The notes below the pieces were generated by a model. It made no database searches. It was not told the DNA's origin and saw nothing but the letters and a program-made list of their open reading frames with translations. From IMG/VR virus record IMGVR_UViG_3300009181_007169: 64,000 nt of DNA, one strand, 5' to 3'. The number at the start of each line of letters is the position of its first letter. The stretch's first letter is position 1. The DNA is from an uncultured virus (IMG/VR IMGVR_UViG_3300009181_007169) (Duplodnaviria; Heunggongvirae; Uroviricota; Caudoviricetes). Below, piece after piece: positions 23,410-31,038 of the stretch. A program made the translations under genes and the position numbers.

Positions 23410-23718
23410 ATGAAATTTAACTCATCTACACAATCTGAAAAAGCTTTAACTAAAGAAGAATTTAATAATTATGCACAGCTTCGTTCTGGGGTATTAAACT
23501 TGAAAGGCAAGCGCTCTGACATATTTGACATGTTGAGAAATGTAGAAAAACAAATGGCTTCTTTGCAAGAAGAATTTAGAGCTAATCAAGAAATGATAGA
23601 AAAACTTGAAATGGAATTTCAAACATTTATTGATGACCTTGGTAAGAAATATGAATTGGGAAATGGGCTATTTAACATTTCAGAAAATGCACCACACACA
23701 ATTGAGCTGGTCTCATAA
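23410..23718 (+). CDS. Hypothetical coiled-coil protein
   Basis: 102-aa ORF directly after the amidase. Confidence 0.6.
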   Translation: MKFNSSTQSEKALTKEEFNNYAQLRSGVLNLKGKRSDIFDMLRNVEKQMASLQEEFRANQEMIEKLEMEFQTFIDDLGKKYELGNGLFNISENAPHTIELVS

Positions 23719-23825
23719 TTTGTTTTGTGTGAAGGTAATCAAATGACCATCAAATAAAAAAAGAGAATTTTTGAATCTAAAAAACAGAAAAAAAACGTTT
23801 TTATCAAATACCCATCAAATAAAAA

Positions 23826-23899
23826 TGGCACCAGAGCTGGGATTTGAACCCAGGCAAAAAGGTTTCGAAGACCTATTGGAACAACCTACTCTCTCTGGT
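23826..23899 (-). tRNA. trnR: tRNA-Arg(TCG), degenerate D-arm
   Basis: Acceptor ACCAGAG/CTCTGGT, G73-CCA, T-arm CTGGG-TTCAAAT-CCCAG, anticodon loop CTTCGAA. Confidence 0.75.
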
Positions 23900-23902
23900 A
23901 TA

Positions 23903-23976
23903 TGGAGCACGATACTGGACTTGAACCAGTGATCAGGATTTTGCAGACCCTCGCCTTGCCTCTTGGCTAATCGTGC
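23903..23976 (-). tRNA. trnC: tRNA-Cys(GCA)
   Basis: Full cloverleaf, loop CTGCAAA, U73-CCA. Confidence 0.93.
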
Positions 23977-23979
23977 GTT

Positions 23980-24053
23980 TGGGGGCAAATAAAAGAATCG
24001 AACTTTTGTCTTAGATGTATGAAATCTGCGCTCTACCATTAAGCTAATTTGCC
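23980..24053 (-). tRNA. tRNA with CAT anticodon (Met or Ile2)
   Basis: GGCAAAT/ATTTGCC acceptor, loop TTCATAC, unusual C73, encoded CCA. Confidence 0.85.
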
Positions 24054-24058
24054 GAAAT

Positions 24059-24133
24059 TGGTATCCGAATTTGGATTTGAACCAAAAACCTCAATCTTAT
24101 ATAGATTATGCTCTGCCATTGAGCTACTCGGAT
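24059..24133 (-). tRNA. trnI: tRNA-Ile(TAT) with A at position 33
   Basis: Cloverleaf, stem TAATC/GATTG, loop TATATAA, A73-CCA. Confidence 0.75.
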
Positions 24134-24134
24134 A

Positions 24135-24221
24135 TGGCTGAGGAACCACGATTCGAACGTGGACAAGCAAATATGTCTCTAGGGTCAAAACCTAGCGTGT
24201 TACCAATTACACTATTCCTCA
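24135..24221 (-). tRNA. trnQ: tRNA-Gln(TTG) with long variable arm
   Basis: U1-A72, G73, loop TTTTGAC, 16-nt variable region AGACATATTTGCTTGT. Confidence 0.88.
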
Positions 24222-24227
24222 GTAAAA

Positions 24228-24301
24228 TGGTGTTGCCCGAAGGAATTGAACCTTCGCCTTCCCCTGCAGTGGGACGCTCTACCAACTGAGCTAGAGACAA
24301 C
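24228..24301 (-). tRNA. tRNA-like gene of undetermined identity (shortened anticodon arm)
   Basis: Canonical D-arm (TAGCTCAGTTGGTAGAGC), T-arm and CCA; anticodon arm TCCC-ACTGCAG-GGGA has only 4 bp. Confidence 0.65.
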
Positions 24302-24308
24302 ATAAACT

Positions 24309-24395
24309 TGGCGGAAGCGGAGAGATTCGAACTCTCAAGACCTTATCAGCCCAGCCGTTTTCAAGACGGTTTATCACACCTATGACAGCACTTCC
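24309..24395 (-). tRNA. trnS: tRNA-Ser(TGA)
   Basis: GGAAGTG/CGCTTCC, G73-CCA, loop CTTGAAA, long variable arm. Confidence 0.9.
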
Positions 24396-24886
24396 TTTAT
24401 TTTTAATTTACTATCGCTTACTTTTTCCAAAATAATTATACCGCGAGAAACCTCTGCATGATGGTTTGGGCAGATAGCAAACATATTTCCTATTTTATAT
24501 TCACCACCTTCTTTTCCAGGTATGTGTCTATGAATATCATAAGTGATATTATAGTTGCATCCCTCAACCATACAAGATGTAATAGCAAACTCAGTCAAAA
24601 GTATTGACAATCTGAGTTTAGATTTATTATTCCATACATTTCCATCTTTGCGGTAATGAATTCCACAACGGCTTTTATTTGAACAACTACGACTACAAAA
24701 TGTAGATTTTGAACTATCTGGTTTGAAAAAATTTTGACACACTGGGCATTTCTTTTCTGCAAGTTTATTTGTTTTTTTAGATGGATTACAACTAGAACAA
24801 TAAAATTTTATTTGTGCTTTTATTTGAAATGGTCTGCGATAAATTTCATTCGAGCAGATTGAGCATTGAGTGTTTGGTTTTCTCAT
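24380..24886 (-). mobile_element. Free-standing HNH homing endonuclease with N-terminal Zn fingers inside the tRNA array
   Basis: MRKPNTQCSIC..YCSSC..CPVC..FCSRSC; C-terminal DIHRHIPGKEGG.Y...NMFAICPNHHAEV. Start moved to ATG 24886 because the track start lies inside tRNA-Ser(GCT). Confidence 0.85.
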
Positions 24887-24950
24887 ATGTGAATATTCAA
24901 AACTTAATAAAACCACTCCTGCACAGAGCCAACTGGTCACTCCCCGTATA

Positions 24951-25037
24951 TGGAGGAAGGCACTGGAATTGAACCAGAGACCTTTCAGTCCGAAATGTTT
25001 AGCAAACATTCGCCAAAACCATTCAGCATTACCTTCC
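24951..25037 (-). tRNA. trnS: tRNA-Ser(GCT)
   Basis: GGAAGGT/GCCTTCC, loop TTGCTAA, long variable arm, CCA. Confidence 0.9.
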
Positions 25038-25047
25038 TTAAAAAATT

Positions 25048-25123
25048 TGGTGGATTCCCAGAGAATTGAACTCTATCCTAAGCGTCTTCAGCGCTTCGTG
25101 CACACCAGCTACACCTGAAATCC
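25048..25123 (-). tRNA. trnF: tRNA-Phe(GAA)
   Basis: Stem AAGCG/CGCTT, loop CTGAAGA, A73-CCA. Confidence 0.92.
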
Positions 25124-25127
25124 ATAT

Positions 25128-25203
25128 TGGAGCGATATGTCAGACTTGAACTGACACAATCTGGTTGGAAGCCAGGTATGCTAACCATTAACATCAATAT
25201 CGC
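25128..25203 (-). tRNA. trnG: tRNA-Gly(TCC)
   Basis: GCGATAT/ATATCGC, loop CTTCCAA, U73-CCA. Confidence 0.93.
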
Positions 25204-25214
25204 TCATTATTTTA

Positions 25215-25226
25215 TTGTCAAAGTAC
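25215..25226 (-). promoter_or_regulatory. boxA-like element upstream of tRNA array 1
   Basis: GTACTTTGACAA, similar to rrn boxA; a related 12-mer sits at the same place before array 2. Confidence 0.45.
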
Positions 25227-25228
25227 AT

Positions 25229-25267
25229 AAAAAAATCCCTGAAGTTTTTTTGGTCTTCAGGGATTTT
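25229..25267 (-). terminator. Intrinsic terminator (attenuator) between leader peptide 1 and tRNA array 1
   Basis: AAAATCCCTGAAG-10-nt loop-CTTCAGGGA-TTTTTTT. Confidence 0.85.
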
Positions 25268-25294
25268 GGTGAAAATTTTGCTTACAGCAGGATT

Positions 25295-25360
25295 TTAGCC
25301 ACTACCCCCTTGGGTTGACCACATAAAACATCCAATACTGCCCTGCAAATTTAATTTCAT
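25295..25360 (-). CDS. Putative attenuator leader peptide 1, MKLNLQGSIGCFMWSTQGGSG (21 aa)
   Basis: AAGGAA RBS at 25367-25372, ATG 25360, TAA 25295-25297; codons match array-1 tRNAs; terminator follows. Confidence 0.8.
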   Translation of the reverse strand: MKLNLQGSIGCFMWSTQGGSG

Positions 25361-25449
25361 AATTATTTCCTTATTATATATATACGACACAATCTCCTAT
25401 TTGTTCTGTAAAAATTAGGTTTTTTTATTTTTTTCTTGAAATTCAGATT

Positions 25450-27195
25450 GTGTGGTATAAATTTGCAAAAATAATTATAGCTGGCAAAGAACATATAATA
25501 AGGAAGATTGCAGAATATTTTAGCGATCAAGGGCAGGATCCTTCCCAACTTAGTGAGAGACTAAATGAGCTTGATAAAGCAAATAAACTTCCAATTATAG
25601 AATTAAGAAAAGATGGAGTGATGTTTGATAATAACATTTACACAGATTTTCTTAAATTTACCGAAGCTGTAGATGCTCTTCATACTATATTAGTTTTCTC
25701 CAAACAAATAAAAGAACAAAAAGAATTAACTAAAGAAAAAATTGATTTTGTACCAGGAAAGATACAAGTAGTTGCCTGCAATGATGTCAATGACGCAATT
25801 AGATATGGCGCAGGAACAAGTTGGTGTATATCACAGCCTGGAAATACAGAATTTCAATCCTATAAGAATAAATACCAATCTACTTTTTACTATGTAAATG
25901 ATGGCACCAGACCACCAGAAGATCCATTATCAAGAGTGATGGTTGATATGCAAGCAAATGGTATCGTAAAACTTACGGACAAAAATAATCGCACTGGGAC
26001 AATAGCTGAGTTTGACGAAGATCATGAAGCTTATTTTGATTATCTTAGAAAAAACGGTGTAGATACATCACAATTTGTAAATAAAACTCTAACAGAAGAA
26101 GAAATAAATGAAAATGAATTATTAGAATACAGAAATGTTACACCAAATTGGTTTGAAAAGTTACCATTAAAATTACAACTTAAATATATAGGAAGAGGAC
26201 ATCTTTTAACGGATGAACAATTAAAATTCATTATTAATTTACCAACAATATCTGGATATTTGATTGAACAATATCTTAATACAGGAGTTAGTATTCCTCA
26301 AAGTCAAAAAGATATGCTTTTTGGCAAAAAACAATACAAAGACACTTATGACAGAAGAAGAGCAATTGCAATAAAAGAGATTAAAGAAGAGTTTGGGAAT
26401 GATAAGTATAGTCTAACAAGATATGCTTTAGAACATGGAGATTTTGAATTAATTGATGAAATCATAAATGAAAAAGACATAAGAAATTTTTATGATATAA
26501 AAGCACCCGAAGAAATGCTGAGATACTTGTTCAGCAAGGGATTAAGTGCAGATAATGTAGCTTGGGAGTGGGTTTCAGACAATTCACTATCTGAAAATTT
26601 TATTGAAGAATTTCAAGATCGTCTTGGTTGGTTTGAGATTTCACGAATGCAAATACTATCTGAAGATTTTATCAGAAGATACAAAGATGATGTGTATTGG
26701 AATTATATTTCCTCTTACCAAAATCTATCTGGAGATTTTATTTTAGAATTTGCTAAACGTTTAGACATGGATAAAGTCTTGAGGAATTATCCAATACCTG
26801 AAAAAATAATTAGAAATTTTGTAGACCGTGTGATTTGGGATGAAATTCCACGGCGTCAAAAACTATCTGAGGATTTCATCAAAGATTTTGCAGGTCGTTT
26901 GGGTTGGGGTAATATTTCACATTACCAAACACTATCCGAAGATTTTATCAGAAAATTCAAAGATAAGGTGAATTGGTATAATATTTCAAAAAAACAAACA
27001 CTATCTGAAGAATTCATTCGTGAATTTGCAGATAGTGTGGATTGGCGCGGGATTTCATTCAATCAAACACTATCGGAGGATTTCATCAAAGAATTTGCAG
27101 AACGTTTGAGTTGGGATGGGATTTCACAAAACCCTAAAATCTCAAGACAAACCAAACTCAATGTTTATTACAAGCTAAAATTTAAAAAACCCTAA
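25450..27195 (+). CDS. Tryptophan-repeat protein, paralog 1
   Basis: YGAGTSWCIS N-terminal domain; C-terminal ~22-aa repeats W..IS..Q.LSE.FI..F.D.V; MWYKFAK start. Confidence 0.75.
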   Translation: MWYKFAKIIIAGKEHIIRKIAEYFSDQGQDPSQLSERLNELDKANKLPIIELRKDGVMFDNNIYTDFLKFTEAVDALHTILVFSKQIKEQKELTKEKIDFVPGKIQVVACNDVNDAIRYGAGTSWCISQPGNTEFQSYKNKYQSTFYYVNDGTRPPEDPLSRVMVDMQANGIVKLTDKNNRTGTIAEFDEDHEAYFDYLRKNGVDTSQFVNKTLTEEEINENELLEYRNVTPNWFEKLPLKLQLKYIGRGHLLTDEQLKFIINLPTISGYLIEQYLNTGVSIPQSQKDMLFGKKQYKDTYDRRRAIAIKEIKEEFGNDKYSLTRYALEHGDFELIDEIINEKDIRNFYDIKAPEEMLRYLFSKGLSADNVAWEWVSDNSLSENFIEEFQDRLGWFEISRMQILSEDFIRRYKDDVYWNYISSYQNLSGDFILEFAKRLDMDKVLRNYPIPEKIIRNFVDRVIWDEIPRRQKLSEDFIKDFAGRLGWGNISHYQTLSEDFIRKFKDKVNWYNISKKQTLSEEFIREFADSVDWRGISFNQTLSEDFIKEFAERLSWDGISQNPKISRQTKLNVYYKLKFKKP

Positions 27196-27265
27196 CATCT
27201 CAGACCAAACCAAACACAATCTGAAAGCAGCAGGATATCCGATACAAATTTAGGAAATTCAGATT

Positions 27266-28978
27266 GTGTGGTATAGATTTGCAAAAATAATTATAGCTGG
27301 CAAAGAACATATAATAAGGAAGATTGCAGATTATTTCAGTAATCAAGGGCACAATACTTCCCAACTTAGTGAGAGACTAAATGAGCTTGATAAAGCAAAT
27401 AAACTTCCAATTATAGAATTAAGAAAAGATGGAGTGATGTTCGATAATAAATTTTACACAGATTTTCTTGAATTTACCGAAGCAGTGGACGCTCTTTATA
27501 CTGAATTGATTTTTTTAAAACAAAAAAAAGAACAAAAAGAATTAACTAAAGAAAAAATTAATTTTACACCTGGAGAGATACAAGTATTTGCTTGTAATAG
27601 TGTTAACGATACAATTAGATATGGTGCAGGAACATCATGGTGTATATCACAACCTGGAAATACAATGTTTCAATCCTACAGGGATAATTACCAATCCACT
27701 TTTTACTATGTAAGTGATGGGACAAGACCACCAGAAGATCCATTATCAAGAGTGATGGTTGATATGCAAGCAAAAGGTATCGTAAAACTTACTGACAAAA
27801 ATAATCAAACTGGGACAATAGCTGAGTTTGGCAATGATTATGAAACTTATTTTGATTATCTTAGACAAAATGGTGTAGATACATCAATATTTGTAAATAA
27901 ACCCGTAACAGAAGAAGAAAGAAAAGAAAATGAATTATTAGGAAAAAGAAATGTTACACCAAATTGGTTTGAAGAGTTGCCAGCAGAATATAAATCTAAA
28001 TATATAGGCAGGGGGCATCTTTTAACTGATCAACAATTAGAGTCTATTATTAATTTACAATCTGTGACATCAAATAATACAGCTGATTTTTTGATTGAAC
28101 AATATCTTAATACAGGAATTAGTATCCCTCCAAGCCAAAAAGCTATGCTTTTTGGCAATAATCAATACAGAGCCACTTATAACAGAAGAAGAAACATTGC
28201 AATAGAAGAGATTAAAAAACATCTTGGGAATGATGATTGGCGTGTAAAAGACTATGCTTTGAGATCTGGAGATTTTGAATTAATTGATGAAATCATAAAT
28301 GAAAAAGGTATAAATAATTATAATTTTTATTATGTTAACGCACCAGAAGAAATGCTGAGATACTTGTTTAGTAAGGGATTAAGTGCAGATCGTGTAGCTT
28401 GGGATTTGATTTCAAGCCGCCCACTATTGTCTGAAGAATTCATTCGTGAATTTGCAGACAGTTTGGATTGGGACATAATTTCACAATACCAAACACTATC
28501 TGGAGATTTTATTTTAGATTTCGAAGACAGTTTAGACATGGATAAAGTCTTGAAGAATTATCCAATACCTGAAAAAGTAATTAGAACATTTGCAGACCGC
28601 GTGGATTGGAATGAAATTTCACGTAAACAACCACTATCTGAAGAATTCATCAGAGAATTTAAAAACCGTGTGGATTGGTGGAGTATTTCAGCTAAACAAA
28701 AATTGTCTGAGGATTTCATCATAGAATTTGCAGACCGTGTGAATTGGAAGGAAATTTCATGGCACCAAAAATTGTCTGAGGATTTGATCAAAGATTTTGC
28801 AGACCGTGTGGATTGGACTGTGATTTCACGTAACCAAAAATTGTCTGAAAGATTCATCAAAGAATTTGCAGAATTTGGTCGCATAAATCCTTATAGTCTT
28901 GAAATTAATCCAAATATATCAGATAAGATTAAAAAACAGTTGGGGACCTTATTCCCGTGGTATAGACCCTCAACTTAG
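27266..28978 (+). CDS. Tryptophan-repeat protein, paralog 2 (tandem duplicate)
   Basis: Near-identical N-terminal DNA and protein to the 25450 ORF; same repeats. Confidence 0.75.
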   Translation: MWYRFAKIIIAGKEHIIRKIADYFSNQGHNTSQLSERLNELDKANKLPIIELRKDGVMFDNKFYTDFLEFTEAVDALYTELIFLKQKKEQKELTKEKINFTPGEIQVFACNSVNDTIRYGAGTSWCISQPGNTMFQSYRDNYQSTFYYVSDGTRPPEDPLSRVMVDMQAKGIVKLTDKNNQTGTIAEFGNDYETYFDYLRQNGVDTSIFVNKPVTEEERKENELLGKRNVTPNWFEELPAEYKSKYIGRGHLLTDQQLESIINLQSVTSNNTADFLIEQYLNTGISIPPSQKAMLFGNNQYRATYNRRRNIAIEEIKKHLGNDDWRVKDYALRSGDFELIDEIINEKGINNYNFYYVNAPEEMLRYLFSKGLSADRVAWDLISSRPLLSEEFIREFADSLDWDIISQYQTLSGDFILDFEDSLDMDKVLKNYPIPEKVIRTFADRVDWNEISRKQPLSEEFIREFKNRVDWWSISAKQKLSEDFIIEFADRVNWKEISWHQKLSEDLIKDFADRVDWTVISRNQKLSERFIKEFAEFGRINPYSLEINPNISDKIKKQLGTLFPWYRPST

Positions 28979-29013
28979 CAGGATATCCAATAAAAAATTA
29001 GTAAATTCAGATT

Positions 29014-29337
29014 GTGTGGTATAGATATTCTCAAAAAAAAATTCTACCTCCGGTACATGAAGGTTGCAAATGCTACATTGAACAAATGCCAGGGGGGAAC
29101 ACAATCTGGCAATTTACTGGAAACACTTGTGAAACCTGTAAAATTTTAGGAAGAGAATATAACCAAAAACAAAATTCGCCTGCTAACGAGCCTGCGCTTA
29201 TAAAGCCACCTATACCTGAACCACCAGCAGTTATTGAAGAGCCTTTATTTAATGAAGAAAAAAATACACAACAAATGAATTTCATGAACTTTAAATATGT
29301 TCCAAGAATATTTTATGATTTAAAAAATGGTCAGTGA
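29014..29337 (+). CDS. Small MWY-start protein with PPxHxxCxC motif (MuF-like Zn motif)
   Basis: LPPVHEGCKCYI...CETC; same upstream sequence as the two paralogs. Confidence 0.55.
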   Translation: MWYRYSQKKILPPVHEGCKCYIEQMPGGNTIWQFTGNTCETCKILGREYNQKQNSPANEPALIKPPIPEPPAVIEEPLFNEEKNTQQMNFMNFKYVPRIFYDLKNGQ

Positions 29338-29404
29338 GGTGGGATTTGAACCCACGCGCCTCTGGGTCACAACCAAAGAGCTCTACCATTTAAGCTACTC
29401 ACTT
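29328..29404 (-). tRNA. trnH: tRNA-His(GTG), atypical acceptor end
   Basis: Loop TTGTGAC, canonical D and T arms, A73-CCA, no encoded G-1:C73. Confidence 0.85.
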
Positions 29405-29407
29405 ATG

Positions 29408-29490
29408 TGGTACCGAAGGTGGGATTTGAACCCACACGTCAAAAGACAATAGTTTCTAAGACTATCGCGGCTACATTACGCCACTTCGGT
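29408..29490 (-). tRNA. trnL: tRNA-Leu(TAG)
   Basis: ACCGAAG/CTTCGGT, loop CTTAGAA, long variable arm, A73-CCA. Confidence 0.92.
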
Positions 29491-29494
29491 ATTA

Positions 29495-29573
29495 TGGTGT
29501 AAAATGTGGGATTCGAACCCACCTGATATCCAAGGTGCAAGCTTGGCGACCACCCCCAGCAGTCCCATTTCAC
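29495..29573 (-). tRNA. trnA: tRNA-Ala(TGC)
   Basis: Loop CTTGCAC, G3:U70 identity pair, A73-CCA. Confidence 0.92.
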
Positions 29574-29580
29574 GAAAATT

Positions 29581-29665
29581 TGGTGGGGACAGTAGGACTC
29601 GAACCTACGAAATCTTTCGATAGAAGATTTACAGTCTTCTGCAATTGCCGCTATGCGATATCCCC
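29581..29665 (-). tRNA. trnY: tRNA-Tyr(GTA)
   Basis: Loop CTGTAAA, long variable arm, A73-CCA. Confidence 0.94.
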
Positions 29666-29670
29666 AAACT

Positions 29671-29749
29671 TGGTCTACATGGCTGGATTTGAACCAGCGT
29701 ACTCAATCTCCCAAGGATTGCGAGGTAAGCCAAACTCCTCAACATGTAG
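29671..29749 (-). tRNA. trnP: tRNA-Pro(TGG)
   Basis: C1-G72, A73, loop CTTGGGA. Confidence 0.92.
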
Positions 29750-29848
29750 ATGAATTTTCGGCTGGATGAAGGGCGTCCTTAGTCATCCACTTACGGGTCA
29801 CCACTTAGAGAGAGTTTAATTCAACCTTGGTACCACCACGATATTTAA

Positions 29849-29860
29849 TTGTCAATGTTC
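29849..29860 (-). promoter_or_regulatory. boxA-like element upstream of tRNA array 2
   Basis: GAACATTGACAA immediately after the attenuator terminator. Confidence 0.45.
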
Positions 29861-29865
29861 ATAAT

Positions 29866-29902
29866 AAAAAAACCCCCGAAAGTTTTTGTCCTTCGGGGGT
29901 TT
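29866..29902 (-). terminator. Intrinsic terminator (attenuator) between leader peptide 2 and tRNA array 2
   Basis: AAACCCCCGAAGG-ACAAAAA-CTTTCGGGGG-TTTTTTT. Confidence 0.88.
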
Positions 29903-29938
29903 GTAGCTTGTCAAATACGCGACTAGCCACTACCCCGA
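29893..29938 (-). promoter_or_regulatory. Antiterminator hairpin of attenuator 2
   Basis: TCGGGG/CCCCGA, GTGGCT/AGCTAC and GTC/GAC pairings; sequesters the 5' arm of the terminator and contains the leader stop codon. Confidence 0.75.
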
Positions 29939-29983
29939 TGAGGGTGCGTAGGCTGGATAGAGATGTCGTAGCGAATTTGTCAT
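29930..29983 (-). CDS. Putative attenuator leader peptide 2, MTNSLRHLYPAYAPSSG (17 aa)
   Basis: AAGGAA RBS at 29990-29995, ATG 29983, TAG 29930-29932; codons match array-2 tRNAs. Confidence 0.82.
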   Translation of the reverse strand: MTNSLRHLYPAYAPSSG

Positions 29984-30030
29984 TTTAGTTTCCTTTTTTA
30001 AATATTATGATTATAAGACGTAATTACCTT

Positions 30031-31038
30031 TTAAAAAGTTTCAGTTTTTTTTACTTTTAAAATTCTATCTTTCGTGAAACAAATAGGTTCTTTTTTGATT
30101 GAATTGCTCACCTCTAAGTCATTTTTACCAACAATAGAATGTGTAGAGCTATTGCTATTCCCGAATTGTGTGAAAGGAAGTTTGCTAATTTGAGAGATAT
30201 TATAAATGTGAACTTGAGTTTTCGCACTTCTTTCAATCTTCCTCAAAATCTTATGCAAAGTCTTTGATTTAAAAACTTTTTTGAAAATAATGTCTTTAAA
30301 TTGCTCAGAAAAAATAATGCTATCTCTGAATTCGTAAACATTTCCAACATTTATTTTGAAATTACCCCTAATGTCTTCTGATATCCAGCCTCTTTTAATG
30401 AATGCTAAGGCGTTTTTTTCAATTTCTGTCCACTCTTCTTCACCTCTTGTTATAAACGGATAACGAAACCTAGCAAAAGCAATAAAATTGAGTTCTGCTT
30501 CACTGATGCCATGCTTTTTCATCAATTTATTGCGATTAAACTTAGTCAAGTTCAAAACTTTTGCTTGAAAAACATCTTCTGGCATTAGCTGTGGGGCTAT
30601 TCCCCAATTAAAATTCGTGAAAAAATTTGAGTATTTTTCTTTCAAAAAGAAAAGATTAATCAAAAAAATTGCTCTAGACAGAAATGAACTTTTTTTATGT
30701 AATAATCTTTCTCGAAATGTTGTTTTATCCTTTTCCTTAGGTATTTTCGAATCTAAGCTTGAGCCTGATAATGGACGCAAGCGTTGTGTTTTGCGCTCAT
30801 CCTGATAAATAAGACTAGCATCAGCTTCCAAAAATCCTTCTTTATCCTCAAAAATAGAAATGTAAGGTGGGGATGTATCGTAATTAATAAGATCTATTAC
30901 TTCTGGGACCCCAGGTAATTCAGATGCTAAGTAAATAATTCTTTTTTCTGGCTCATCATCCACTTCATTTTTTTTTGAAATAGCTTTTTCAGACTGTGTT
31001 TTTTCAACTAATTTATTCTCAGATGCAATTTCACTCAT
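30031..31038 (-). CDS. Hypothetical protein (335 aa)
   Basis: Long ORF with a TGTATAAA element 6 nt upstream. Confidence 0.65.
   Translation of the reverse strand: MSEIASENKLVEKTQSEKAISKKNEVDDEPEKRIIYLASELPGVPEVIDLINYDTSPPYISIFEDKEGFLEADASLIYQDERKTQRLRPLSGSSLDSKIPKEKDKTTFRERLLHKKSSFLSRAIFLINLFFLKEKYSNFFTNFNWGIAPQLMPEDVFQAKVLNLTKFNRNKLMKKHGISEAELNFIAFARFRYPFITRGEEEWTEIEKNALAFIKRGWISEDIRGNFKINVGNVYEFRDSIIFSEQFKDIIFKKVFKSKTLHKILRKIERSAKTQVHIYNISQISKLPFTQFGNSNSSTHSIVGKNDLEVSNSIKKEPICFTKDRILKVKKTETF

Follow-up and report, generated by a model that had tools for sequence, protein, structure and literature searches.

Multivalent attenuators are described from enterobacteria, where the ilvGMEDA leader carries Ile, Leu and Val codons and the thr leader Thr and Ile codons, and where trp, his, leu and pheA are also under this kind of control. 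In the E. coli pheST attenuator, the pheM leader holds a run of a single amino acid and the controlled product is an aminoacyl-tRNA synthetase. In Gram-positive bacteria, T-box leaders work without an ORF, through direct binding of uncharged tRNA. Phage tRNA genes are usually viewed as a fixed supplement to codon usage, or as spares against host tRNA cleavage; to our knowledge, little is understood of how these phage-borne genes are regulated. A search of the full-text literature, whose coverage mostly leaves aside subscription journals and older phage literature, returned no description of attenuator control of tRNA genes.

Here we analysed 64,000 nucleotides from an uncultured virus of the Caudoviricetes (IMG/VR IMGVR_UViG_3300009181_007169), a stretch that we refer to as the window. 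On its minus strand, ahead of a tRNA array, lies an element (the leader-1 element, Table 1) that an initial annotation had taken for an attenuator. We consider a leader-peptide (ribosome-dependent) transcription attenuator gating the tRNA array to be the best explanation of this element, and a likely one; the phage would then probably make the array tRNAs only when ribosomes decode the matching leader codons slowly. The interpretation given in the annotation draws support from the anatomy of the element, from a paralogous element that matches an array of its own, from reshuffled homologs, from a Gln/His leader and from tRNA loci that have no leader. The argument for attenuation appears to depend on this comparison with the paralog and the relatives more than on the codon count of leader 1 alone.

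As in the enterobacterial attenuators, a promoter-proximal short ORF holds the putative regulatory codons and a 1:2 hairpin lies over its end; a predicted 2:3 antiterminator and a 3:4 terminator would exclude each other, the position of the ribosome would decide between them, and several amino acids are sampled by one leader. The phage element differs in that it would control tRNA genes and not biosynthetic enzymes: ten tRNAs and an HNH endonuclease are found downstream of leader 1, and not genes for amino-acid biosynthesis, amino-acid transport or aminoacyl-tRNA synthetases. Its leader samples up to nine or ten amino acids, mostly once, whereas the enterobacterial leaders have runs of one to three, and the speed of decoding, which is the signal, would be affected directly by its product, tRNA. 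With pheST it shares the principle of a leader-peptide attenuator placed over a component of translation that handles the amino acid of the leader codons; however, pheM, with its single-amino-acid run, controls a synthetase, and the phage element would control tRNA genes. T-box leaders resemble it in that tRNA status is read by a terminator/antiterminator switch ahead of genes with a role in translation, and no Rfam T-box model matched positions 23500-30200 at E values up to 1. Among the Rfam cis-regulatory models, His_leader (RF00514) alone aligns over its full length (model positions 1-126) with the array-2 element described below, in the window and in one relative. With 26.8 bits for leader 2 of the window (E 0.33) and 30.3 bits for that of the relative (E 0.076), against a gathering score of 49, the array-2 element is not a member of this family; leader 1 gave no match to the model.

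Table 1. Features of the leader-1 element, its tRNA array and the paralogous element in the window
Feature	Position	Strand	Description
Promoter-like box	25381..25394	-	Upstream of leader 1; -10-like hexamer 25384-25379; 14-nt motif
Shine-Dalgarno site AAGGA	25368..25372	-	7 nt ahead of the ATG; sequence reading
Leader-1 ORF MKLNLQGSIGCFMWSTQGGSG	25295..25360	-	21 codons and TAA; ATG 25360-25358, TAA 25297-25295
Probable sensing codons 6-14 (QGSIGCFMW)	25319..25345	-	Ribosome-masked folding and codon match
Hairpin 1:2	25296..25321	-	Spans the ORF end and the first two stop-codon bases; minimum-energy fold
Antiterminator 2:3, core	25259..25309	-	Outer helix extends to 25321-25251; predicted with region 1 masked
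Intrinsic terminator 3:4	25229..25267	-	13-pair hairpin (25267-25232) and 7-U run ending at 25229; ViennaRNA
TTGACAAT box	25214..25221	-	10 nt ahead of tRNA-Gly
tRNA array 1	23826..25203	-	10 tRNAs including a probable Ser-gct; ARAGORN, Rfam, PHROGs
Paralogous element	29848..29983	-	Leader 2 MTNSLRHLYPAYAPSSG 29983-29930; terminator 29902-29870; TTGACAAT 29855-29848
tRNA array 2	29328..29749	-	Pro-tgg, Tyr-gta, Ala-tgc, Leu-tag, His-gtg; ARAGORN

All anatomical parts of a ribosome-dependent attenuator are present in the leader-1 element, and in the correct order, between the promoter-like box and the first tRNA, and our reading of the ORF and of its 21 codons is identical to that of the annotation. 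An in-frame GTG located 10 codons upstream of the ATG (25390) was considered as an alternative start and discarded, as it falls inside the promoter-like box. The gene upstream of leader 1 is divergent, and the leader-1 terminator therefore closes no upstream gene. Array 1 follows in the order Gly-tcc, Phe-gaa, Ser-gct (probable), an HNH endonuclease ORF (PHROGs, E 7e-12), Ser-tga, Ala-tgc, Gln-ttg, Ile-tat, Met-cat, Cys-gca and Arg-tcg. Nine of these tRNAs are called by ARAGORN on the leader-1 strand, from 25203 to 23826. The Ser-GCT tRNA that had been listed for the array is absent from these calls; it coincides with a class-II tRNA-like Rfam match at 24955-25037, which reaches 43.2 bits with the tRNA-Sec model (cut-off 47) and whose anticodon loop was read by eye. 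In a blastn comparison with GenBank phages only the tRNA genes found matches, and the leader found none.

The match between leader 1 and array 1 was examined codon by codon. Fourteen of the sixteen codons 6-21 had been said to name amino acids with a tRNA in the array, and this count is right, with Trp and Thr as the exceptions; by itself, however, the count is no more than modestly unusual (P about 0.01-0.02) and gives too strong an impression, codons 15-21 being probably structural. As a chance baseline, the array-1 amino acids make up 42.5% of the residues in the 39 long ORFs of the window. The 14 matches obtained over all 20 post-start codons have a binomial P of 0.012, and 14 of 20 is equalled by 351 of 16,879 real proteome windows (empirical 0.021). 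Codons 15-21 share bases with a 13-nt motif, also carried by leader 2 in another reading frame, and they lie past the point at which a stalled ribosome permits the antiterminator in our folding models; for these reasons they are probably structural rather than sensing, and the sensing codons are probably about 6-14. Within this shorter stretch, eight of the nine codons belong to the array-1 set and cover seven different amino acids of it, a match equalled by 3 of 17,308 proteome windows and by 166 of 500,000 random draws.

The agreement is less complete when the anticodons are considered. Under standard wobble, 10 of the 20 post-start codons of leader 1, and six of the nine in the sensing stretch, are readable by array-1 anticodons; unreadable examples are ATT by Ile-tat and both GGC and GGT by Gly-tcc. 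The Ala and Arg tRNAs of the array have no codon in leader 1, which in turn contains Trp and Thr codons for which array 1 offers no tRNA. With a Trp codon that has no Trp tRNA, an Ile tRNA that reads ATA and not ATT, and Ala and Arg unrepresented, the match is partly decayed relative to that of a relative.

A second element of the same kind, with its own array, is found on the minus strand of the window. Nine of ten consecutive codons of leader 2 name Leu, His, Tyr, Pro or Ala, which are exactly the five amino acids of array 2. None of 17,269 proteome windows and 5 of 500,000 random draws reach this value, and over the whole of leader 2 nine of 16 codons match array 2 (P 0.005). The cross-controls fail as expected, with two of 20 codons for leader 1 against array 2 and seven of 16 for leader 2 against array 1. 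Across homologs, the leader-2 ORF is intact in 7/7, and its antiterminator, predicted with 19 pairs, is 100% paired in seven distinct sequences.

One relative of leader 1 shows a closer fit. A 347-kb viral contig has the leader MKLNLQGSMVGCFIWSTQGGSG and an array of Gly, Phe, Ser, Ser, Ala, Gln, Ile, Val, Met, Cys and Trp tRNAs; all ten codons 6-15 of this leader fall in the set of its own array, with nine different amino acids, and a match of this quality was found in 0 of 17,269 proteome windows and 0 of 500,000 random draws. Nine of these ten sensing codons are readable by the array anticodons under standard wobble. Compared with the window, this relative has its Ile and Met codons in exchanged positions and an additional Val codon, brought in by a 3-nt insertion. 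Where the Val codon occurs it is accompanied by a Val tRNA (3/3 leaders), and a Val tRNA is present also in two of the three leaders that have no Val codon; a strict covariation of codon and tRNA was therefore rejected, as it holds in only four of six lineages. The leader-1 ORF is intact in 8/8 homologs, among them the carrier of the 3-nt insertion and a sequence whose N-terminal half is rewritten, and AGGA with a spacing of 7-9 nt is conserved in all eight aligned homologs. Read together, these sequences point to a leader whose composition is conserved and whose peptide order is not.

This pattern bears on the possibility that the small ORF encodes a functional micropeptide, or that a small RNA gene occupies the region up to the terminator, with the tRNA array as a mere neighbour. 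A conserved ORF, a good ribosome-binding site and a strong terminator after it are what such a gene would present. However, the order of the peptide varies while its composition is kept, as seen in the exchange of Ile and Met, in the N-terminal half that is rewritten in one relative and in the existence of three unrelated leader families; its C-terminal codons track a nucleotide motif that lies in a different frame in the paralog; and, tRNAs aside, no Rfam family reaches its cut-off. We consider this explanation very improbable.

The third leader family was found solely through the pattern of a hairpin followed by TTGACAAT, with the codons disregarded. Its leader MNTFQQHQHQTGTKSA (QQHQHQ), unrelated to leaders 1 and 2, precedes an array of Gln-ctg, Gln-ttg and His-gtg; six of its 15 codons match (binomial P 4.9e-5), and this is equalled by 1 of 17,074 proteome windows. 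Another leader of the family, MNKAVQHQHQQGNNGH, precedes a tRNA-His at the end of a short contig. The Gln/His hairpins have no U run. Combined by Fisher's method, the three leader families give a P of 6e-7. The Gln/His phage has a second module in front of Asp-Glu-Gly, in which a promoter, a 40-codon ORF, a hairpin and TTGACAAT are all present. We did not retain it as a further codon-matched case, because 11 of its 39 codons name Asp, Glu or Gly and the enrichment is weak (P 0.06). No such module was found within 230 nt upstream of each of the other tRNA groups of this phage.

It could be argued that, with a translated ORF and hairpins that do play a part, the signal is the general translation or amino-acid status of the host, as for classical attenuators, rather than how much there is of the tRNAs of the array, the array match being loose or a historical leftover. 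The imperfect match in the window, where the array can read six of nine sensing codons, would fit this account, as would the weak enrichment before Asp-Glu-Gly and one lineage that has dropped the tRNAs for Leu, His and Ala from array 2 and retained the leader codons for them. Such leader specificity would nevertheless be needless for a general sensor: the leaders of the arrays in one genome differ sharply, each fitting its own array, and the Gln/His sensing stretch uses solely the two amino acids of its three tRNAs. On balance we find a general-status signal improbable.

We then turned to the structures on which the attenuator reading depends. The 1:2, 2:3 and 3:4 structures that had been drawn by eye were all recovered by ViennaRNA. 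The minimum-energy fold contains the 1:2 hairpin and the terminator (-41.9 kcal/mol, z -2.84), and one of 200 shuffles was as good; the terminator stem has a pair probability of 0.91, and its hairpin by itself reaches -16.5 kcal/mol. With region 1 masked, the 2:3 antiterminator is predicted at -16.5 to -22.2 kcal/mol. A simple terminator scan listed the array-2 terminator and missed that of leader 1, because the loop of the latter is 10 nt long and the limit of the tool is 8.

Folding of the full transcript at equilibrium with a ribosome mask gave the terminator at every ribosome position (P 0.91-1.0) and is uninformative for a kinetic switch. Since the terminator always wins at equilibrium, the switch would work only if the antiterminator forms first, and the test was replaced by masked-ribosome folding of RNA truncated before the 3' arm of the terminator. 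Under these conditions, the 5' arm of the leader-1 terminator is predicted to be paired with a probability of 0.86 when the A site is at codons 2-10 and of 0.60-0.71 at codons 11-14, and of at most 0.34 from codon 15 onward. The attenuator logic was recovered in 10/10 elements tested, the 5' arm being paired with a probability of 0.7-0.98 for A-site positions at roughly codons 5-13. For eight of these elements this probability is 0.5 or less with the A site at the last few codons or the stop; in G001 leader 1 and the two Gln/His elements it lingers at 0.57-0.77 at a few late codons and drops at or just before the stop. When compared with shuffled sequences, the leader-1 antiterminator of the window was attained in both pairing probability and energy by one of 200, and the leader-2 antiterminators by 0-1 of 200. 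Those of two leader-1 relatives were matched by 59 and 49 of 200 shuffles and are not above chance, and that of one Gln/His element is weak, with 19 of 200 as good.

The conservation of these folds was also assessed. Hairpin 1:2 forms all 10 pairs in seven of seven distinct homologous sequences, nine of them invariant and one varying one-sidedly, and its 3' arm is the 13-nt motif common to leader 2. Across the homologs, 94% of the cells of the leader-1 antiterminator and 98.9% of those of the leader-1 terminator are paired. Compensatory base changes were not found in either fold of either leader family (0/43, 0/23, 0/37 and 0/19 pairs); the homologs are too alike, with 85-91% column identity. 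In these alignments 94-100% of the cells are paired, and the shuffle controls were no different. In an alignment read by eye, the terminator arms of one relative alter jointly, from CCCT/AGGG to CCCC/GGGG.

From these elements we infer the following course of events. Transcription would begin at the promoter-like box, near 25384, and a ribosome would load at the Shine-Dalgarno site and translate the 21-codon leader as the RNA polymerase proceeds. If decoding of codons 6-14 (Gln, Gly, Ser, Ile, Gly, Cys, Phe, Met, Trp) is slow, the ribosome would cover segment 1, leaving segment 2, the conserved 13-nt motif around the stop codon, to pair together with the small hairpin after it with the 5' arm of the terminator. 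With this antiterminator in place no terminator would form, and the polymerase would enter tRNA-Gly and the remaining array. If decoding is fast, the ribosome would reach the last codons or the stop and cover segment 2, the terminator would form and transcription would stop at the U run. In the absence of a ribosome, segment 1 would pair with segment 2 and the terminator would form again. Scarcity of usable tRNA for the leader codons would thus open the array and the new tRNAs would close it; as many of the codons in the leader are decoded by tRNAs of the array behind it, such a loop would regulate itself.

If this is correct, a textbook mechanism is extended to a new class of targets, in which tRNA, as the regulated product, would itself alter the signal. 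When the phage makes its tRNAs would then have a simple and testable account, the leaders would be a natural read-out of the codons that the phage monitors, and they suggest a compact sensor for synthetic biology that reports on many tRNA species simultaneously. A broader reading, which we put forward tentatively and hold to be somewhat less than an even chance, is that large phages run a closed-loop tRNA supply, with test peptides that are re-edited as the arrays change and that double as a defence sensor. Each array would be preceded by a test peptide in which the amino acids of as many as ten tRNA species occur roughly once apiece; the inserted Val codon, the swapped Ile and Met codons and extra CTC codons alongside an extra Leu-gag tRNA would be examples of re-editing. 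The array would fire solely upon slow decoding of these codons, which could occur early in infection, in a host tRNA pool ill-suited to the AT-rich codons of the phage, or once host defence nucleases have cut the host tRNAs, and the element would in this way also sense tRNA-targeting defence.

A different reading of the leader-1 element concerns the start of array transcription. The terminator may be a plain insulator of a short unregulated transcript, with the array starting downstream, TTGACAAT as its signal and a coincidental codon content in the leader. TTGACAAT follows every terminator of the family, standing 10-11 nt ahead of the first tRNA unless an insert intervenes, and it fits the sigma-70 -35 consensus; the leader promoters of the Gln/His phage bear TTGACA-type -35 boxes; and most of the 20 matches to the hairpin and TTGACAAT pattern in bacterial genome contigs are ordinary terminator-then-promoter junctions, one of them preceding a tRNA-Trp with a normal promoter and without a leader. 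One run of a freshwater metatranscriptome contained 7% of the sampled words, and its four contigs are pieces of tRNAs only; the contig over tRNA-Phe and tRNA-Gly stops 9 nt upstream of tRNA-Gly, as an array start at this place would have it, although contigs from an RNA library do not reveal starts, ends or levels and these have no bearing on the leader. Against this, TTGACAAT is so close to the first tRNA (10-11 nt to its mature 5' end) that a -10 belonging to it would fall inside the tRNA. We therefore rejected TTGACAAT as the -35 of a second promoter as the main reading, given this distance, the absence by eye of a -10 hexamer 16-18 nt downstream, and its lack of enrichment in the window (nine copies, 8.3 expected). 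Nor can coincidence explain three leader families that fit their own arrays, with the combined P given above and the failed cross-controls. We judge the insulator to be an unlikely explanation.

For the attenuator, the tRNA loci that have no leader are informative. Two related phage contigs contain six tRNA loci with a GTATAAT-type box 7-13 nt upstream and with neither leader nor terminator; four of the six carry the full box CGTATAAT and the others have GTATAAT after another base. As these leaderless loci have a similar promoter box, the module is an insertion between promoter and array and not a general feature of these tRNA genes. The CGTATAAT-like box was not retained as a genome-wide motif, since its 50 one-mismatch matches are close to the 47 expected and only its local context is informative; a scan with the sigma-70 consensus was likewise uninformative (28 sites, 27.7 expected). 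In the leader-1 promoter box the core CGTATA is invariant in 8/8 aligned homologs. The 14-nt promoter-like motif occurs in four copies in the window against 0.09 expected, and the other three copies are on the plus strand, just before the genes at 25446, 27262 and 29010.

The element preceding array 1 lies entirely on the minus strand, where a promoter-like box, a ribosome-binding site, a short ORF (leader 1), hairpins, an octamer and tRNA-Gly follow one another in that order. The neighbouring gene upstream is divergently oriented, so the leader-1 terminator ends no upstream gene; it is placed between the promoter and the tRNAs. ARAGORN called nine tRNAs in array 1, and a tenth is a class-II tRNA-like Rfam match below the cut-off, whose GCT anticodon loop was read by eye. 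The array also contains an HNH endonuclease ORF that looks like a mobile insertion; one relative lacks it and has Ser-gct and Ser-tga 5 nt apart, and the array of another is interrupted by 772 nt at a later point. The long variable arm of the array-1 tRNA-Gln is unusual for a Gln tRNA and is also found in relatives.

Positions of the leader elements, tRNA arrays and neighbouring features (window coordinates unless a compared sequence, L or G, is named)
Feature	Position	Strand	Remarks
Promoter-like box	25394-25381	minus	before leader 1
Ribosome-binding site AAGGA	25372-25368	minus	5' of leader-1 ATG
Leader-1 ORF	ATG at 25360, TAA 25297-25295	minus	21 codons, encodes MKLNLQGSIGCFMWSTQGGSG
Hairpin 1:2	25321-25296	minus	covers end of leader-1 ORF
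Terminator (3:4)	25267-25229	minus	13-pair hairpin, then seven U's
Octamer TTGACAAT	25221-25214	minus	ten bases ahead of tRNA-Gly
Array 1	25203-23826	minus	tRNA-Gly as first gene
HNH endonuclease ORF	24380-25009	minus	between Ser-gct and Ser-tga; phrog_1271, E 7e-12
tRNA-Gln (ttg)	24135-24221	minus	87 nt
tRNA with TCG (Arg)	23826-23899	minus	in array 1
Trp-cca of a relative	L001:3442-3516
Octamer before array 2	29848-29855	minus
~98-nt element	29750-29847	minus	between octamer and tRNA-Pro
~98-nt element, relative	L107:1286-1383
~98-nt element, relative	L002:2403-2500	minus
~98-nt element, relative	L113:2403-2500	minus
Array 2	29749-29328	minus	Pro, Tyr, Ala, Leu, His
Gly-tcc of a relative	L002:269-357	minus	first tRNA of its array 1
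14-nt promoter-like motif	25446-25459, 27262-27275, 29010-29023	plus	three exact copies
tRNA region of the Gln/His phage (L134 and L135)	G003:C1:106500-133500

Our count agrees with the initial annotation that 14 of codons 6-21 of leader 1 name amino acids with a tRNA in array 1. The share of these amino acids among residues encoded by long ORFs of the window is 42.5%; over all 20 codons past the start the match is 14/20 (P 0.012), which 351 of 16,879 real proteome windows equal, and only 10/20 codons are readable by array-1 anticodons under standard wobble. The match in codons 6-14 (QGSIGCFMW) is rarer by chance than the whole-leader count: 8/9 belong to the array-1 set and represent seven different set amino acids, a level attained in 3 of 17,308 proteome windows and in 166 of 500,000 random draws. 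For codons 15-21 a constraint on the RNA is the most likely explanation, since they overlap a 13-nt motif of which the array-2 element has an exact copy, read there in another frame. At two mismatches or fewer this motif has six matches (0.23 expected), of which only the copies before arrays 1 and 2 are exact.

The element before array 2 has the architecture of the first one but its own leader, MTNSLRHLYPAYAPSSG. Nine of the ten codons 5-14 of leader 2 stand for Pro, Tyr, Ala, Leu or His, precisely the set of array 2, a level found in 0 of 17,269 real windows and 5 of 500,000 random draws. Exchanging the leader-array pairings abolishes the match, as leader 1 scores 2/20 against array 2 and leader 2 scores 7/16 against array 1. 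Between the octamer and tRNA-Pro of array 2 lies a conserved element of ~98 nt, which the window shares with three relatives. Two other lineages lack it, and their tRNA-Pro stands 10 nt past the octamer. RNAalifold predicts two hairpins in the element, with several one-sided pairing-preserving changes (U-G to C-G, A-U to G-U), and it matched no Rfam family.

Homologs of both leaders were found by pattern scans (shared motif, terminator and octamer) of viral and metagenome contigs, and the ORF is intact in 8/8 leader-1 and 7/7 leader-2 sequences aligned. A viral contig of 347 kb has MKLNLQGSMVGCFIWSTQGGSG as its leader 1, and its array 1 comprises Gly, Phe, Ser, Ser, Ala, Gln, Ile, Val, Met, Cys and Trp. 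Codons 6-15 of this leader all fall in the set of its array (10/10, nine amino acids), which none of 17,269 proteome windows and 500,000 random draws reached, and anticodons of that array can read nine of these ten codons. Between the two leaders the Ile and Met positions are exchanged, and the contig has an extra Val codon through a 3-nt insertion; array 1 of the window has no Val tRNA and its leader likewise no Val codon. Composition is kept in leader 1 and peptide order is not, which is the prediction of a codon sensor and not of a functional peptide.

Relative to the 347-kb contig, the leader 1-array 1 match of the window looks partly decayed. The Ile tRNA has anticodon TAT in the window and GAT in the contig, and the window's Arg-tcg, in the position of the contig's Trp-cca, is a clear ortholog of that tRNA, with an identical T arm, an acceptor stem altered by compensatory changes and an anticodon differing at two bases; the Trp codon of leader 1 is therefore left with no array partner. 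In a third lineage, array 2 includes an additional Leu-gag tRNA, and the leader before it has two CTC codons. Two observations cut against codon-tRNA covariation: a Val tRNA is present behind two of three leaders that have no Val codon, and in one lineage array 2 is reduced to Pro and Tyr but the leader still has Leu, His and Ala codons. Leader 2 of the window has a CGA codon at the site of CTC in the contig with Trp-cca. In another relative (L002), Gly-tcc carries an intron-like insertion of ~17 nt just 3' of the anticodon; Rfam still recognises a tRNA there, at 47.8 bits, and ARAGORN with the intron option misnames it.

A scan for hairpin plus octamer, which ignored leader content, gave three matches adjoining a tRNA outside the window's own family. 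The first, in the 153-kb contig of the Gln/His phage, has a promoter (TTGACA-16-TATAGT), then MNTFQQHQHQTGTKSA eight bases on, a hairpin and the octamer, followed by Gln-ctg, Gln-ttg and His-gtg; its leader matches this array at 6/15 (P 4.9e-5; equalled by 1 of 17,074 proteome windows). The second places MNKAVQHQHQQGNNGH ahead of tRNA-His on a short metagenome contig, and the third was rejected as an ordinary bacterial promoter before tRNA-Trp. The three leader families combined give P 6e-7. A second module of the Gln/His phage, before Asp-Glu-Gly, is weakly enriched (11/39, P 0.06), and the phage's other tRNA groups have no such module. The hairpins of the Gln/His elements are without U runs. 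The 26 tRNA matches of this phage lie on a single strand over 25 kb, in ~17 small groups interspersed with protein genes, and the module occurs at only two of the groups.

The 1:2 hairpin and the terminator, first drawn by eye, are both present in the minimum-energy fold of the whole of leader 1, which also joins the first half of the ORF to the stretch 3' of the stop codon. In equilibrium folding the terminator forms wherever the ribosome sits, and for this reason any switch must be kinetic, as in classical attenuators. In the kinetic model, the RNA was folded as before the terminator 3' arm exists, with everything masked up to the ribosome front edge. With the A site at about codons 5-13, the terminator 5' arm was sequestered in all ten elements (P 0.7-0.98, structures of -16 to -27 kcal/mol). 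Once the A site had moved to the final codons or the stop, it was free (P at most 0.5) in eight of them. Pairing lingers at 0.57-0.77 at a few late codons in leader 1 of the compared sequence G001 and in the two Gln/His elements, and drops at or just before the stop. For leader 1 of the window, the probability is 0.86 at codons 2-10, 0.60-0.71 at codons 11-14 and no higher than 0.34 from there on, and the structure recovered by masked folding is the 2:3 pairing of the initial annotation.

Support for this antiterminator from shuffled sequences was mixed. Of 200 shuffles, those that did as well as the element in pairing probability and also in energy numbered 1 for leader 1 of the window, 0-1 for the four leader-2 elements, 6 for leader 1 of the third lineage, 4 and 19 for the Gln/His elements, and 59 and 49 for two leader-1 relatives. 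Both alternative folds fit every homolog, with 94-100% of cells paired against 29-66% with partners slid; because the aligned homologs are 85-91% identical, no compensatory changes occur among them in pairs of either fold.

Two related viral contigs contain six further tRNA loci with a GTATAAT-type box 7-13 nt before the tRNA (CGTATAAT at four of the six) and with neither ORF nor terminator in between. A similar box, its core invariant, stands ~20 nt 5' of the leader-1 ATG in 8/8 homologs. Given these leaderless loci with a similar promoter box, leader and terminator are inserted where an ordinary phage promoter would otherwise adjoin the two large arrays, and the module is not general to these tRNA genes. 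Each terminator of the family has the octamer behind it, as a rule 10-11 nt from the first tRNA if no insert intervenes. That it marks a second transcription start is improbable; it is not enriched within the window, and no -10 hexamer was seen at the proper distance from it.

From the anatomy, codon statistics, conservation pattern and predicted folds, we consider it fairly probable that the array-1 element is a working attenuator, whose translation, transcription start, termination and feedback we infer. A slow ribosome on codons 6-14 would not cover segment 2, which could then pair with the terminator 5' arm, and polymerase would continue into the array; a fast ribosome at the stop would cover segment 2, the terminator would form and transcription would stop. 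As the array tRNAs read many leader codons, their build-up would close the array again. Multivalent leader-peptide attenuators (ilv, thr) work by this logic. Unlike the usual targets of such attenuators, the genes that the element would control are tRNAs. The Rfam family His_leader matched leader 2 only, at 26.8 and 30.3 bits, below the cut-off of 49 for membership. A full-text literature search, with most subscription journals outside its scope, returned no paper on tRNA-gene attenuation.

The window is AT-rich (G+C about 25-40% per 2-kb windows, about 30% in most) and phage-like, with matches to endolysin, head and tail proteins; no close phage relative was found in GenBank. Two paralogous genes of ~570 aa that match phrog_3532 (function unknown), and an ORF of 107 aa, each follow a copy of the 14-nt promoter-like motif; the GTG starts listed for these three genes fall within the motif and are probably artefacts. 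The same three genes part the two arrays in the window, and a gap of just ~570 nt divides the arrays of two relatives.
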